From NCBI GenBank assembly GCA_016703265.1, contig JADJCK010000009.1, positions 226,570 to 290,569 on the forward strand: a stretch of DNA of 64,000 bases, in the 5' to 3' direction. The notes beneath the pieces were generated by a model, which was not told where the DNA came from, made no database searches, and saw nothing but the letters and a program-made list of their open reading frames with translations. Below are positions 18,011-31,868 of the stretch, piece after piece. The stretch's first letter is position 1. The number at the start of each line of letters is the position of its first letter. The position numbers were made by a program, and so were the translations under genes. Origin of the DNA: a bacterium. GTDB lineage: Bacteria; Krumholzibacteriota; Krumholzibacteriia; LZORAL124-64-63.

Positions 18011-18068
18011 GTATGTCGAATTCCGCTGAAAAAGGATTGGCTCCTCGAACGCTCCCCTCCTCGAACCC
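18011..18068. repeat. copy E (most diverged) of the tRNA-Asn 3'-end-containing direct repeat; distal island boundary
   Basis: GATTGGCTCCTCGAACGCTCCCCTCCTCGAACCC resembles the tRNA-Asn 3' end (TGGCTCCTCGGGTAGGGCTCGAACC). The left arm has weak similarity to copies A, C and D. Confidence 0.45.
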
Positions 18069-18238
18069 AATCACACCGCCCCCACCGGAATCGTCACGAC
18101 GCCGTCGGCCAGCGGCAACGCCGACTCGGACAGGCAAATCACGCATCCCGGTCCGATCGGTCGGTCCAGCCGCGCCAGGGTGCCGAAGTGCCGCACGCCG
18201 TCGCGCCCGGGCGAGGTCGGCCACGTTCAGGAGTTGGG

Positions 18239-19450
18239 TTGTGCCGCTGAAATTGTGTCCGGCCGCGTCAGGCAATGGCGCGGCCGGCTCTCTTTCCGGC
18301 CACTAGAACGCGTACTTCAGATCATGCACCCGCTGCCTCTCCAACACCCGTGTCCGCACCCGCCGCCCGTAGTACTCCAGCCACCGCCCCGGCAGGGTGA
18401 TCCGACTCGCGAATAGCCGACTCTCCAGCAGCTCCGCAATCTCCAGCCGATCCGTCCGCATCCCCCGCATCTGGGCCGGCGTCGGACTTCCCCGCACCTT
18501 CTCCTTTCGGCCCTTCATGTAGTTGCGCCACACCAGGAACACCGCGAACCGTTCGGCGCTCGCCTGTCGCCGCTTCGACCACGCAATCGTCTCCCGCTTG
18601 TGATTGGCGCTGCTGTGCCGCAGCAGCATATCCGCCAGATTCACCGGGAACAGCCGGTTGCGCGCATCCCGCCGCTCCTTGCTCGATGTCACCAGGTGCG
18701 TCACTTCGCACGGCAACTGCCGGATCGCCCGGGGATATGCCTGGTGCTCGTCGCTCAACACTGTCAGCCGCCGTTGACCACCGGCGACAACCTCGAGCAG
18801 GTGCGTCACATCCTTCAGCACCGCCTTGGGATCAGGCCGACCGTATTGCTGCTCGAGGCGCTCGCGCTTGCGCTTCTGGGCGTCGGTCATGGTGCCGGAG
18901 CGGCGCACCTCGCTGTCGGTGAAGTAGACGATGAGATCGGATCCGGGCTCGATGGCCGGATGGTGGTGGAACGGCCAGAACTGGGAGTGCTCGAACGACA
19001 CGAAGCCGTCGATGGCGACGATGGAAGCCGGCTTTGCGTCCTGCATCTGCTGTGTGTGGTACAGCATGCAGTGCCGGCCGAGCCGCGCCAGCTGGCGATC
19101 GATGGTGGAAGGCGCGACCCGCAGGTCACGCGCGATCTGGCGATTGGCCATGCAGCCGACGGTCTTCATGATGATCTGCCCAAGGACATCCGGCCTCTTG
19201 AGCCAGTAGGTAGTCGCGAAAGTCTGGGAGCTGAATGACCGGCGGCAGCACTGGCAGAGGAACCTGGGGATACGCTTTCGCTGGCACTGACTCCAGTGGT
19301 AGCCAATGCGTTTGAAGCGCCATCCTTGGCGCAAGCCACTGTGGAATGGGCAGTTGGGGTTGGGACAGTGGGGTGGTTCGAAAGATCTGGCGTTGGTGTT
19401 CATGTCCGGCCCGGGCATCAACTAGGCCGGACACATTCTCGGCGGCACAA
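18239..19450 (-). mobile_element. IS element (zinc-ribbon DDE transposase, IS1595/IS1-like) with 26-bp imperfect terminal inverted repeats and a 12-bp target-site duplication
   Basis: IR-L TTGTGCCGCTGAAATTGTGTCCGGCC (18239-18264) and IR-R GGCCGGACACATTCTCGGCGGCACAA (19425-19450) match 23 of 26 as reverse complements. Direct repeat TCAGGAGTTGGG lies immediately outside both ends (18227-18238 and 19452-19463). Confidence 0.7.
18303..19421 (-). CDS. transposase (N-terminal zinc ribbon CPNPNCPF...CQCCRRSF, HTH, DDE domain)
   Basis: 372-aa ORF filling the IS. N-terminal architecture is typical of IS1595/IS1-type transposases. Confidence 0.65.
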   Translation of the reverse strand: MMPGPDMNTNARSFEPPHCPNPNCPFHSGLRQGWRFKRIGYHWSQCQRKRIPRFLCQCCRRSFSSQTFATTYWLKRPDVLGQIIMKTVGCMANRQIARDLRVAPSTIDRQLARLGRHCMLYHTQQMQDAKPASIVAIDGFVSFEHSQFWPFHHHPAIEPGSDLIVYFTDSEVRRSGTMTDAQKRKRERLEQQYGRPDPKAVLKDVTHLLEVVAGGQRRLTVLSDEHQAYPRAIRQLPCEVTHLVTSSKERRDARNRLFPVNLADMLLRHSSANHKRETIAWSKRRQASAERFAVFLVWRNYMKGRKEKVRGSPTPAQMRGMRTDRLEIAELLESRLFASRITLPGRWLEYYGRRVRTRVLERQRVHDLKYAF

Positions 19451-19847
19451 GTCAGGAGTTGGGCGGTGCGTGCAGCGCAGGCCCGCACGAAGCGCAGGAA
19501 CGCTGTCTCATCGCCGACGCGGGCCAAGTCGCGGATGTCCCGTTGCAGGCAAGTTTGAACATACGAACTGAAGTAGAGGTCGCGGTCCAGGCCGGGGTCG
19601 CGTGTCAGGGCCGGGTACGCGCCGCGCCAGATGCGACGGTAGAGTTCAGGCAGCGGAAGCGCCCGGGCCTGCATTCGACGTCCACGGCCATCTTGATGTA
19701 GGGCAGCAAACCGGGAGCGTACTGGATCTCGTCGATGATGACCGGTCCGGGATACCGCTGCATGAACTGGGGCGGGTCACTGCGCGCCAGTTCCACCAAG
19801 CGCGGGTCATCGAGGCTGAGATACGTCCGCCCCTCGCCTGCGATTTC

Positions 19848-29617: not shown

Positions 29618-31300
29618 TGGGTTCAGCCCGCCGTTGCCACCGGTGCCTGCGGCCCCAGTGATATAGGTCGGTGCGATCATGCTCGGCGCAGAGTTGACCT
29701 TGTAGACGCAATAGCTCGGTCCGCCCGGCCCGCCCGCCCCGGCGCCACCTCCGCCCCCCGCTCCACCCCGCCCGCCACGGCCCCCGGCTCCGAGCTCGCT
29801 CGGGCAGGCTGCCCCGCCTGGGCCGCCTGCGCCGCCCGGGCCGCCTACTCCTCCATCGCCCCCATCTCCGCCCCTGCCCCCTACGCCTCCCGCGAATGTG
29901 CAACGGTCGAACACGGGTGACGAGTTCACCAGGAACACGGCGAACGCACCAAACCCGCCTTGCCCGCCGTCTCCGAACCCACCGGGCACCCCGCCCGAGC
30001 CGCCGCCGCCGCCACCGTTGCCACCGCCGTTATTGCAGAGCGCGCACTGCTGGCCGCCGCCGCCGCCACCACCACCACCACCGGAGCCAAACTGTCCCGA
30101 GGTTCCATTGGTCGACCTCAGAGGGCTCCAGAAGGAAGCGACGATCGCTCCGGACGCCGAGGCAGGGCCGCCGTTCACTCCGAATGTCCCCGCAGCCCCG
30201 TCAAGGCCATTGGTGCCTGGCTGGCCGGGATCACCCGCCGCGCCACCCGCTCCCCCGACTCCTGTATTGGGGCCGGCACAGTCGCTATCGGTTCCCGCGG
30301 CGCCGCTACCATTGCCCGTCTGGGATCCGCCCTGGCCGCCGTCTCCTCCTCGGCAGCCGAAGCCCAGCCATGCACCGGCTCCGCCTCCACCGCTCGCCCC
30401 GTCACAGCTGCCGGCCCCTCCAGTCGCACCCGTCGCCTCGTTGTAGCCCTGGCCTCCTGCGAAACCATGTGCGCCAGCAGCGCCGGTCCCGGCAGTGAAC
30501 ACGCAATTGGTGAACTTCAGGCTCTCGGTGCAATCCAGGATGTACATGGGATTCGAATTCCCAGGATCCGGCGCGGGGCCACTGCCGGATCCGCTTCCGA
30601 ACCAGAACTCGATATTGCTGAGCTCGGTGAGCGAGTCGATGTCGGTGGCCATGGCATGTAAGCCCAGAGCGAGCGTGAAGCGGGTGCGACTCAGACCCAC
30701 GCTCCAACCGGGAAGATCGTATCCGCCGTGCACGCTGACCCGCTCGGCCAGGACGGGGGCTTCCGCGTAGTCGGCCGCTTCGATCAGGATCGACCTGCTG
30801 CCCACGCTCTGGGCGATGGCGGCGGCGCGCCCGTAGGTCTTGACAGGTGCCGTACGACTGCCGTCGTTTGCGTCGTCGCCGGTGCTCGCCGACACATGGA
30901 TGGGGCCCGCGGCTGGTGCGCCCGCAGCCTCTGCGGATGCAGCACTCTCACCCGCTGAGTTCACCGCCGTGATGACGTAGGAATAAAGCGTGCCGTTGGT
31001 GAGCGAACCGTGTGTGTAGGGCGAGACGACTCCGGGGATCTTGCTATCGGCCGTCGTCGCGCCGGCACCCGGTTTGAAGTACAGGTTGTAGGATGTCGCT
31101 CCGGTGACGGCGTTCCAGCTCACGACATTCGATTGCTCGCCTGCGAGGACCTGCGCATTGACGGGGGCCGCAGGGATGTTCACGGTGGGCGCAGTGGACG
31201 AACTTCCCTTGCCCCCGCAGCCAGGCAGAGCGATCCACATCACGATGGCGAGCGTGAAGGTGGCAGCGAACAGAGAGCGAGGCTCTGCGGTCCGGATCAT
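29561..31300 (-). CDS. glycine-rich lipoprotein with FN3 domain and GGxGGxG-repeat region (PGRS/adhesin-like)
   Basis: Lipobox signal peptide (LPGCGG), FN3 (VVSWNAVTGATSYNLYF...YSYVITAVNSAGES), long Gly-rich tracts. AGGAG ribosome-binding site before ATG 31300. Confidence 0.55.
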   Translation of the reverse strand: MIRTAEPRSLFAATFTLAIVMWIALPGCGGKGSSSTAPTVNIPAAPVNAQVLAGEQSNVVSWNAVTGATSYNLYFKPGAGATTADSKIPGVVSPYTHGSLTNGTLYSYVITAVNSAGESAASAEAAGAPAAGPIHVSASTGDDANDGSRTAPVKTYGRAAAIAQSVGSRSILIEAADYAEAPVLAERVSVHGGYDLPGWSVGLSRTRFTLALGLHAMATDIDSLTELSNIEFWFGSGSGSGPAPDPGNSNPMYILDCTESLKFTNCVFTAGTGAAGAHGFAGGQGYNEATGATGGAGSCDGASGGGGAGAWLGFGCRGGDGGQGGSQTGNGSGAAGTDSDCAGPNTGVGGAGGAAGDPGQPGTNGLDGAAGTFGVNGGPASASGAIVASFWSPLRSTNGTSGQFGSGGGGGGGGGGQQCALCNNGGGNGGGGGGSGGVPGGFGDGGQGGFGAFAVFLVNSSPVFDRCTFAGGVGGRGGDGGDGGVGGPGGAGGPGGAACPSELGAGGRGGRGGAGGGGGAGAGGPGGPSYCVYKVNSAPSMIAPTYITGAAGTGGNGGLNPSSGGSGPNGNPGLIGIAN

Positions 31301-31735
31301 GGACATCTCCTGACGTGTACATCCCGTGGTTGGCGACGGAAGCTTACCCCTGAGGGTCACCAACCGGCTAGAAGAACCTCGCCGCTCGTGGCACGACGCT
31401 GCTGCGAAGGGAATAGGAAATTCAACCCACCATTCCCTGAGCAGTCTCGATAAAGCGTGCCGGCAAATTCATGAACTGGGCTTTTCATTGCAGAGCGCGC
31501 ACAACGGTTTTGCCCGATGTTTCCGTTGGATGCCCCGCGATTCATACCCTGTCCTGCTGGATTATGCCACATTCTGCGTGCGACAATGCCATCGATTGGT
31601 GCGTAGTGATCCCCGCCACTCGCGCCAGCACGCCGCCGCGCTCTCTCGCCTTCTCTCAATTTCGCGGCCCCGGCGCCCCAAATTTCTGCCCCCGTAACCC
31701 CTTGTGCCGCAAGCAACAAGAACGGCCCCAATCCC

Positions 31736-31810
31736 AAGGAGGATCGAGGCCGCTGTAAACTTCTCGCGCTCCGATTTCGAGGCCGGAGAAGATTGGCTCC
31801 TCGGGTAGGG
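31736..31810. repeat. copy D of the direct repeat, contiguous with and overlapping the 3' end of tRNA-Asn
   Basis: AAGGAGGATCGAGGCCGCTGTAAACTTCTCGCGCTCCGATTTCGAGGCCGGAGAAGATTGGCTCCTCGGGTAGGG. The last 17 nt are the tRNA 3' end. Confidence 0.65.
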
Positions 31811-31868
31811 CTCGAACCTACAACCCTGCGGTTAACAGCCGCATGCTCTACCATTGAGCTACCGAGGA
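31794..31868 (-). tRNA. tRNA-Asn (anticodon GTT), CCA encoded
   Basis: Minus-strand sequence TCCTCGGTAGCTCAATGGTAGAGCATGCGGCTGTTAACCGCAGGGTTGTAGGTTCGAGCCCTACCCGAGGAGCCA. 7-bp acceptor stem, D, anticodon (CU-GUU-AA loop) and T arms all pair. Confidence 0.9.

Follow-up and report, generated by a model that had tools for sequence, protein, structure and literature searches.

How does a row of small accessory gene modules come to be lined up behind a tRNA gene when none of them is found to carry a recombinase? This question is raised by a ∼14-kb array in a 64,000-nt stretch of DNA from an uncultured bacterium of the Krumholzibacteriota (assembly GCA_016703265.1, contig JADJCK010000009.1), which we call the window and whose GC content is 66.9%. 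The array lies directly downstream, in the tRNA sense, of an intact tRNA-Asn(GTT) gene with encoded CCA (31794..31868, minus strand), which is its anchor and the sole tRNA gene that ARAGORN and Rfam (tRNA, 70 bits) find in the window. Repeats in the orientation of the tRNA divide the array into four modules of 1.3–4.7 kb each, which leave almost no space unassigned.

An initial inspection of these letters (the sequence-only reading) took the repeats for remnants of serial tyrosine-recombinase integrations at the tRNA 3′ end, in an island that looked old and degraded. The explanation we favor, with a confidence slightly better than even, is that the accessory modules were assembled and reshuffled by site-specific recombination at a 20-bp core within the repeats, by an enzyme encoded elsewhere, in the manner of cis-mobilizable elements (CIMEs). 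It builds on the anatomy of the repeats, on breakpoints that fall at the core, on the independent assortment of the arms that flank the core, and on the fact that no recombinase gene was detected in the window or in related arrays. The searches for recombinases, and those for further repeat copies within a genome, covered the 64-kb window and related loci. The latter, designated by L-numbers, all come from metagenome assemblies, of activated sludge and other sources, and some of their bin labels are implausible (“Reyranella,” “Patescibacteria”).

Anatomy of the junction unit

Four full copies of the repeat (A, B, C, and D) and a half copy (E) are present, all oriented like the tRNA. The direct-repeat spans are 31735–31803 for D, which is contiguous with the tRNA, 26995–27063 for C, ∼25655–25736 for B, 21252–21320 for A, and ∼18028–18068 for E. 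A degenerate 39-nt pattern matches exactly A, B, C, and D in the window and has no match in 100 shuffles, and a profile hidden Markov model (HMM) of the unit, run over the 64 kb, recovers the same four copies plus a partial E, with none outside 18.0–31.8 kb. These results confirm that same-orientation repeats lie downstream of tRNA-Asn, although the five copies counted originally are four full ones and a half copy that lacks a 55-nt extension. Over the 52 nt of core and right arm, copy D is 92% identical to C (∼90% had been estimated), 81% identical to A, and 67% identical to B. The sequence CGRGGAGCCAATC is common to all five.

The sole part that every copy shares is the 20-bp core, CGRGGAG-CCAATC-YTCTCCG; copy D has no left arm and copy E has no standard right arm. 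The core consists of the 3′ acceptor strand of tRNA-Asn and CCA, which are the last 11 nt of the gene, followed by an imperfect inverted repeat; its layout is 7-6-7, and the CCA falls within the spacer. These 11 nt (CCGAGGAG plus CCA) are where the unit solidly overlaps the tRNA. The next six bases match at chance level, and the 17 nt of tRNA that had been assigned to copy D are thus too many. The 7-bp core helix is the only helix or inverted repeat conserved in the unit. Its positions are paired in 86% of cells among 10 copies, versus 53–70% with a slid partner, and covariation within it does not exceed that of shuffles or chance in these 10 copies.

On its right side, the core is joined to a tRNA trailer copy that includes the terminator and that can be aligned over ∼180 nt in D, L034, L063, L067, and the first L057 copy. 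This right arm contains the invariant blocks GAAATCG and GAGAAGTTTAC plus a terminator-like hairpin; the GAAATCG and GAGAAG blocks are present in every copy. The sequence-only reading had noted an extension of ∼55 bp beyond the tRNA, had described it as common to all copies, and had suggested that it might point to a different repeat-generating mechanism. The extension is the conserved right arm of the junction. It is missing from the terminal copy E, as expected of an arm rather than of a core, and no separate mechanism is needed to account for it, given its homology to the tRNA trailer and terminator. With a left arm of ∼30 nt in addition, the unit is longer than the ∼75 bp first proposed.

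The left arm is conserved over ∼30 nt in many copies and occurs in about four types. These are the tRNA body itself (copy D), an ATPase type (found in C, E, and at the L057 end), a TTCACGCWGCGCGCCCCGACC type that is widespread and follows beta-helix, DUF4143-fragment, and HepT genes, and the arm that follows the Fic gene (copy B). Copy D therefore reads tRNA-core-right arm; A, B, and C read left arm-core-right arm; and E reads left arm-core-E-type end. This E-type end (GGAATTCGACATACCTTCCGG), which replaces the standard right arm, is also found in L057, L058, and L059. A T-loop-like GGTTCGAG in the ATPase-type left arm was considered as a relic of the 3′ half of a tRNA; it lies 5 nt out of register, and such an origin is unproven.

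All units are on the minus strand. In copy D, the core (CGAGGAG-CCAATC-TTCTCCG, 31784..31803, identified from the sequence and helix pairing) is followed by the right arm at 31625..31783, which carries GAAATCG, GAGAAGTTTAC, and a conserved GGTTACGGG...GAGAGAG stretch, is 84% identical to L057 2803–2966, and can be aligned to L034, L063, and L067. A terminator scan places the hairpin at 31721–31754. Unit C (26995..27089, core 27044–27063), found by repeat comparison, pattern, and HMM, has an ATPase-type left arm, and its right arm breaks off within the terminator. Unit B (25655..25736, core ∼25696–25715), supported by pattern and HMM, is the most diverged full copy and is 82% identical to the L034 copy over 72 nt. 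Unit A (21252..21345, core 21301–21320), supported by the same two methods, has a beta-helix-type left arm and orthologous copies in L005 and L064, and its right arm leads directly to the ribosome-binding site and ATG of the next gene. The terminal half unit E (17998..18072, core 18028–18047), recognized as a repeat family member and by the HMM, joins an ATPase-type left arm to the E-type right arm. Between E and a converging gene for a phosphate-binding-protein-like (PBP-like) product, the terminator scan detects another terminator-like hairpin (17969..17993, minus strand).

Breakpoints in related arrays and how the array may have formed

True copies of the unit occur in seven other assemblies, namely L005, L064, L034, L057 (two copies and an E-type end), L061, L063, and L067. 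Among 46 loci collected from a genome collection by an exact 18-mer, 44 were rejected as chance matches without flanking similarity or tRNA-Asn; the two real ones are L005 and L034.

The clearest breakpoint is seen in L067, which has tRNA-Asn and shares the right flank of the array (histidine kinase, DUF5686 protein, and Phd genes) at 89%–97% identity. Over 213 nt on the upstream side of the tRNA, the two sequences are 91.5% identical, and through the tRNA and CCAATC, identity is complete (100%). In the 40, 60, 100, and 190 nt that come next, it is down to 70%, 60%, 63%, and 56%, respectively. The cargo that follows in L067 (an 895-aa protein, a type IX secretion system [T9SS] protein, and others) is unrelated to that of the window, with no second unit in 9.4 kb, and in the 22 kb of L067 the only unit copy is the one at the tRNA. 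The comparison of tRNA-Asn loci that the sequence-only reading had proposed thus reveals different cargo after tRNA plus CCAATC, but no empty site was seen in this relative.

A second informative junction is found in L057, whose rluA and amylase-like genes are 88%–89% identical to those of the window and have the same order relative to the array, and which carries orthologs of the window's Fic gene (85%) and of the ATPase gene that is followed by unit C (87%). Behind this ATPase gene, the junction matches window copy C in the left arm as far as GGGGRGTCA and from there on matches copy E. It is a C-left/E-right hybrid of two cores that lie 9 kb apart in the window, and so corresponds to a 9-kb insertion or deletion that ends in two cores. 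Copies C and E have in common only 34 nt of left arm and core at 88% identity, with a longest exact run of ∼10 nt by reading, and E is without the 55-nt right-hand extension. They should therefore be a poor substrate for RecA.

The third case is L005, which is 96%–98% identical to the window over 15.4–22.6 kb and retains E and A. Its extra half unit breaks directly after ATCTCCGG, before a beta-helix paralog, at the place where the window has unit B and the LVIVD-repeat gene. In these three relatives, content varies with breakpoints at the repeats, and in general the arrays differ module by module between genomes whose core genes are 88%–98% identical, and the array is thus not simply an old and degraded island.

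Across the seven assemblies, left and right arms assort independently. Units are found after tRNA-Asn, ATPase, Fic, beta-helix, DUF4143-fragment, and HepT genes. The right arm of type 1 follows the tRNA, an ATPase gene, and a beta-helix gene, and the beta-helix-type left arm precedes three types of right arm. Copy D of the window shows 90%–94% identity to units that occupy other positions in other genomes, but only ∼70% to the L067 unit whose position is orthologous to its own. Judged from these alignments, the signatures are those of exchange at a discrete site, the core, and not of old scars that decayed passively.

The left edge of the array was examined as a possible simple empty site, and this was ruled out. 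In L054 and L055, rmlA-rmlC-ispF-ddl come after the porin/PBP-like operon, and none of these four genes is present in the window. Similarity to L054 ends near 17866, ∼40 nt past the stop codon of the PBP-like gene (window 17826–17870). The porin-side comparison indicates a larger rearrangement or synteny break at this edge. In the relatives, the four genes sit behind a conserved CTGTACTATCCT motif (L054 2893–3036; L055 3622–3781).

If site-specific exchange is responsible, then each internal junction would be a hybrid site in which the core is flanked by a left arm that stems from the end of the module before the junction and by a right arm homologous to the tRNA trailer with its terminator hairpin. 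Modules would enter and leave by core-by-core exchange, possibly by way of a circular form. The exchange would be catalyzed by an enzyme that acts in trans, because the ∼12 modules in five assemblies contain none, and its gene could reside at another place in the genome or on a helper element. The single hint to its class is the 7-6-7 inverted-repeat layout of the core, which by analogy suggests a tyrosine recombinase. The core is unlike the consensus of the dif-like (11-6-11) sites that bound Xer-dependent modules, such as integrative mobile elements exploiting Xer (IMEX) and plasmid dif modules, and that are used by host XerC/D. Each module is flanked by cores at both ends and lacks integration and transfer genes (no conjugation genes were identified in the window modules), which is the structural definition of a CIME. 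A standard genomic island has its integrase inside, and this array does not.

Several findings weigh against this explanation. No excised circle and no empty site have been observed. No tyrosine or serine recombinase (Phage_integrase, Recombinase, Resolvase) is encoded by any open reading frame (ORF) of the window, and none was identified in L005, L034, L057, or L067. The informative junctions number just ∼12 and come from a handful of metagenome assemblies. Not every breakpoint is at the core, since the right arm of C ends within the terminator. The first segment of L067 is at least 9.4 kb long with genes on both strands, and modules are thus not uniformly small or co-oriented; the co-orientation of the window cargo may itself reflect a local strand bias, as most genes of the left flank are also on the minus strand. 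Finally, the copies outside the window lie in DNA that shows no tRNA in the part examined (L067 does carry tRNA-Asn), and their membership in tRNA-Asn arrays would follow from synteny (rluA and amylase-like genes, 88%–89%, L057 versus the window).

Much the same anatomy, with direct repeats that contain the tRNA 3′ end, would result from classical serial integration, in which each segment was once an integrase-bearing island or prophage at the 3′ end of tRNA-Asn and the array is a fossil that later lost all integrases and mobility genes to deletion. GC content stays close to the window mean (0.67) over most of the array; local dips to 0.55–0.60 occur at 21.5–22.5 kb and 26.5–27.2 kb, and the minimum of 0.55 (21.5–22.2 kb and 26.5–27.2 kb) would suit this history. 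Insertion sequence (IS) elements and a disrupted ATPase gene could be signs of decay, and the falling identities of D to C, A, and B resemble ageing. We nevertheless regard this history as unlikely. Not even a fragment of an integrase was found in the ∼12 modules of five assemblies, and the six-frame scan of the unassigned stretches of the window (19422–20242, 21967–22765, 25319–25800, and 31364–31793) also yielded none, which, together with the ORF searches, bears out the statement that the island has no integrase. The modules are only 1.3–4.7 kb long with hardly any unassigned space. Genomes that are 88%–98% identical differ in content with breakpoints at the core, and exchange must then have gone on after the supposed decay. 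Copy B is more diverged than A, which occupies the older position, and divergence is thus not a function of position. What survives of the serial-integration proposal is the behavior of the junctions (the drop after CCAATC in L067, the L057 hybrid, and the assortment of arms), and what is not supported is the idea that each segment once had its own integrase.

The lack of a recombinase would be no puzzle if none were involved, that is, if the units were duplicated tRNA-Asn trailers kept for their terminator and promoter while homologous or illegitimate recombination between these 100–200-nt repeats shuffled the genes. The right arms do carry terminator-like hairpins, with compensatory changes between L034 and L063, the homology of ∼180 nt is far longer than a minimal att core, and units diverge between species about as slowly as coding DNA. 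However, the informative breakpoints (window/L067, L057 C/E, the L005 half unit, and E) are at or beside the core rather than spread along the long right arm, the C/E recombinant would require homologous recombination across 34 nt at 88% identity, and simple duplication of tRNA plus trailer would not yield the left arms, which have no relation to the tRNA body. We consider this proposal quite unlikely. A functional RNA or a dispersed element of the repetitive extragenic palindromic (REP) type, such as a structured 3′ untranslated region, a small RNA, or a processing signal that mimics the tRNA 3′ end, could explain why all copies are in sense orientation downstream from co-oriented genes and why GAAATCG and GAGAAG never vary. 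It could also account for two small, mutually exclusive hairpins, the second of which has one compensatory change in two L057 copies. Yet the only Rfam match is the tRNA, single-sequence folds of C, B, A, and E (four of six copies) are no better than those of shuffles (z −0.5 to +1.7), the RNAalifold consensus is a weak −5.3 kcal/mol with no covariation term, and covariation in the core helix is at shuffle level. A structured RNA was therefore rejected, as Rfam, folds, RNAalifold, and pair counts give no support beyond the 7-bp core helix. There are no copies beyond the array in the 64 kb, and the unit ends have neither terminal inverted repeats nor target-site duplications. This explanation, which also leaves the identity drop and the hybrid junctions unaccounted for, is highly improbable.

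Cargo of the modules and neighboring genes

Read in the direction of the tRNA, module 1 begins with a gene for a Gly-rich protein with an fn3 domain (29561..31363, minus strand; Pfam fn3). It is followed by an IS481/IS3-like element (28631..29620, plus strand) with an rve_3 transposase ORF at 28634–29617, a secondary insertion that was identified by Pfam rve_3 and NCBIfam IS481/IS3 and that is 89%–92% identical to copies in L057 and L067. The module ends with ATPase C (27090..28340, minus strand), a COG1373-type protein with AAA_14 and DUF4143 domains (Pfam). Module 2 contains the Fic-domain gene (25787..26719, minus strand; Pfam Fic), whose ortholog in L057 lies at 6441–7368. A promoter scan places an AT-rich, promoter-like leader of this gene at 26886–26914 (minus strand).

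Module 3 (minus strand) encodes an LVIVD-repeat protein with a FlgD_ig/T9SS C-terminal sorting domain (22766..25318; Pfam, NCBIfam) and a right-handed beta-helix protein (21366..22641; Pfam and comparison with L005). The LVIVD gene contains ∼13 tandem 126-nt (42-aa) repeats with 60%–80% identity at 23358–25126. The beta-helix gene consists of two overlapping ORFs in the window and of a single 413-aa ORF in L005; the split may be a true frameshift or an error of long-read sequencing or assembly. Module 4 (minus strand) holds a gene for a 331-aa, secreted-looking protein with a signal-peptide-like N terminus and no family match in Pfam or NCBIfam (20243..21238) and a second COG1373 ATPase gene, ATPase E. 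Of the latter, an N-terminal remnant with an AAA_14 match is left (19452..20069), broken by an ISL3/IS1-like element (18239..19451; NCBIfam) and by a fragment of the IS481/IS3-like element (19862–20031, from repeat families). The ISL3/IS1-like element is missing in L005, where 368 bp of DUF4143 coding sequence are kept instead (L005 4859–5226), and because of this retention the insertion appears to have come with an adjacent deletion. All cargo other than IS elements is co-oriented with the tRNA. These assignments agree with the cargo named in the sequence-only reading, which comprised two IS elements, Fic, two COG1373 ATPases (one disrupted), T9SS-cargo adhesins, and a Gly-rich lipoprotein.

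All related arrays examined contain the IS481/IS3-like element at 89%–92% DNA identity, in each case oriented against the cargo (window 28631–29620, with fragments at 19862–20031 and 15848–15934; L057 3020–4320; L061 1831–2418; L067 21273–22196). In L057 and L061, it directly follows the junction unit, and several contigs end inside it. It is probably a high-copy IS of the lineage.

The 416-aa ATPase C has homologs with 85%–95% identity in many assemblies, including a Candidatus Krumholzibacteriia metagenome-assembled genome, and homologs with 62%–65% identity in assemblies labeled Nitrosomonadales, Rhodocyclales, Gallionella, and Metallibacterium. Conservation across these labels is unusually high, which suggests frequent horizontal transfer. 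A third COG1373 ATPase gene with AAA_14 and DUF4143 domains (2080–3381, minus strand) has 53% amino acid identity to the L057 ortholog of ATPase C and is not accompanied by a junction unit. It sits between a pseudouridine-synthase gene (3483–4217) and an alpha-amylase-like gene (694–2025), with flanks at 2025–2080 and 3381–3483, and its AT-rich leader contains three ATTGGACG repeats. Because its two neighbor genes are adjacent in L057 and L058, it represents a single-gene insertion or deletion. In L066, an unrelated long contig, an ∼11-kb island splits the gene for an Fe-hydrogenase large subunit (6874–7784 / 18695–19024) and carries an ATPase ortholog, AbiEi/AbiEii, a ResIII helicase, and a Y1 transposase, with no junction units. 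The idea that the ATPase gene and the unit form one mobile module was rejected on the grounds that orthologous ATPase genes in L056 and L066 (89%–90%) have unrelated 3′ flanks.

Upstream of the tRNA are genes for a Phd antitoxin, a DUF5686 outer-membrane-type protein, MazEF, and a hybrid histidine kinase. The 730-aa protein adjoining the tRNA is identical to MBK6735727.1 / IPG61_16950. The Phd/YefM antitoxin gene (32076–32444) is located ∼200 nt upstream of the tRNA and directly upstream of its promoter, has no recognizable toxin partner, and shows the same orphan layout in L067. The MazE/MazF pair (34620–35311) is missing from L067. There, the histidine-kinase and DUF5686 genes, otherwise 89%–97% identical, are adjacent, so the pair is a separate small insertion or deletion outside the array.

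Known systems and significance

Stacked islands at tRNA genes are textbook material and are normally made up of elements that bring their own integrase; Bacteroides NBU1 integrates at the 3′ end of a tRNA-Leu gene. There is also published precedent for islands that are arranged in tandem between repeats of a tRNA or tmRNA 3′ end and that in part lack integrases (PMC3146451; PMC5704250; PMC4891358). The ssrA islands of Dehalococcoides (McMurdie et al. 2011, PMC3146451) are likewise stacked downstream of a single-copy, tRNA-like (tmRNA) gene, are each bounded by a direct repeat of the gene 3′ end with extra conserved bases beside it, and vary in content between strains. Some of them have no integration module and have been suggested to be cis-mobilizable. 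However, in 16 of those islands a conserved integration module beside attL encodes a CcrB-like serine recombinase, while no module has a recombinase here in any assembly, and their repeat comprises 20 bp plus a 15-bp adjacent motif, whereas the junction described here extends over 100–200 nt and includes trailer and terminator (PMC3146451). Our modules are also much smaller.

CIMEs and the accretions of the ICESt1/ICESt3 family (integrative and conjugative elements, or ICEs) and of comparable systems similarly keep attL and attR, lack integration and transfer genes, and stack at the 3′ end of a target gene through site-specific recombination, and CIMEs can be mobilized by the integrase of a related element (PMC5704250). 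In contrast, they usually reside beside a functional ICE or integrative and mobilizable element (IME) that supplies the integrase, and no such partner is present within the 64 kb (PMC5704250). Four or more modules are stacked here, unlike in usual CIMEs, and the likeness is structural. The unit was also not matched in IMG/VR, phage, or plasmid collections, in which an attP-bearing phage or plasmid was sought.

The asn-tDNA islands of Klebsiella pneumoniae use the same target tRNA species, have direct repeats into which the last 16 nt of the tDNA are incorporated and which occasionally extend up to 148 bp, and form accretion composites (PMC4891358). They differ in their size of 10–200 kb, in the P4-like integrase that each one carries, in the repeat sequence, and in an unrelated host lineage (PMC4891358). 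Phage mv4 integrates at the extreme 3′ end of tRNA-Ser (bioRxiv 10.1101/2023.11.06.565760). [quoted passage not shown] The differences are that both elements encode their own tyrosine integrase, that their att arms are not known to be copies of a tRNA trailer, and that no array of small modules is described for them.

Integron arrays, and the clusters of attC sites lacking integron-integrases (CALINs) that exist without a neighboring integrase, share with the tRNA-Asn array the small, mostly co-oriented modules that end in a recombination-site-like unit, and the toxin–antitoxin and defense-type cargo (Cury et al. 2016, PMC4889954). An identity with integron attC sites was rejected, however. 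No RYYYAAC or GTTRRRY boxes occur in or around the five units on either strand, there is no long imperfect hairpin beyond the 7-bp helix, and no IntI is encoded upstream of the tRNA. In addition, the anchor is a tRNA gene rather than attI, and the modules have their own terminator and leader and may hold two to three genes. A bolder proposal, which we consider doubtful, is that the array represents a tRNA-anchored, integron-like gene-capture platform in an uncultured lineage with T9SS genes. Integrase-less modules of 1–5 kb would each end in a unit of ∼100–200 nt that mimics the 3′ end and trailer of tRNA-Asn and supplies terminator and leader, and a dedicated chromosomal recombinase would insert, excise, and reshuffle them at the 20-bp core, in a cassette system independent of IntI/attC.

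Because tRNA-anchored island arrays are already known, what is special here is the combination of small integrase-less modules, a long junction unit derived from a tRNA trailer, the shuffling of modules across a genus, and an uncultured host. The related uncultured bacteria appear to possess a family of arrays with clean exchange at one 20-bp site and no recombinase in any module, and at the junctions of these arrays, the tRNA trailer has been copied as a portable terminator and leader. The cargo across these arrays combines toxin–antitoxin, abortive infection (Abi), Fic, and ATPase genes with secreted, adhesin-like proteins. If no trans-acting enzyme is found, then the arrays would amount to CIME-like accretion, documented well, in a lineage about which little is known, and would also be a reminder that repeats reaching beyond a tRNA can simply be conserved att arms. 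If such an enzyme is found, then they would represent a second, independently evolved way to build cassette arrays.

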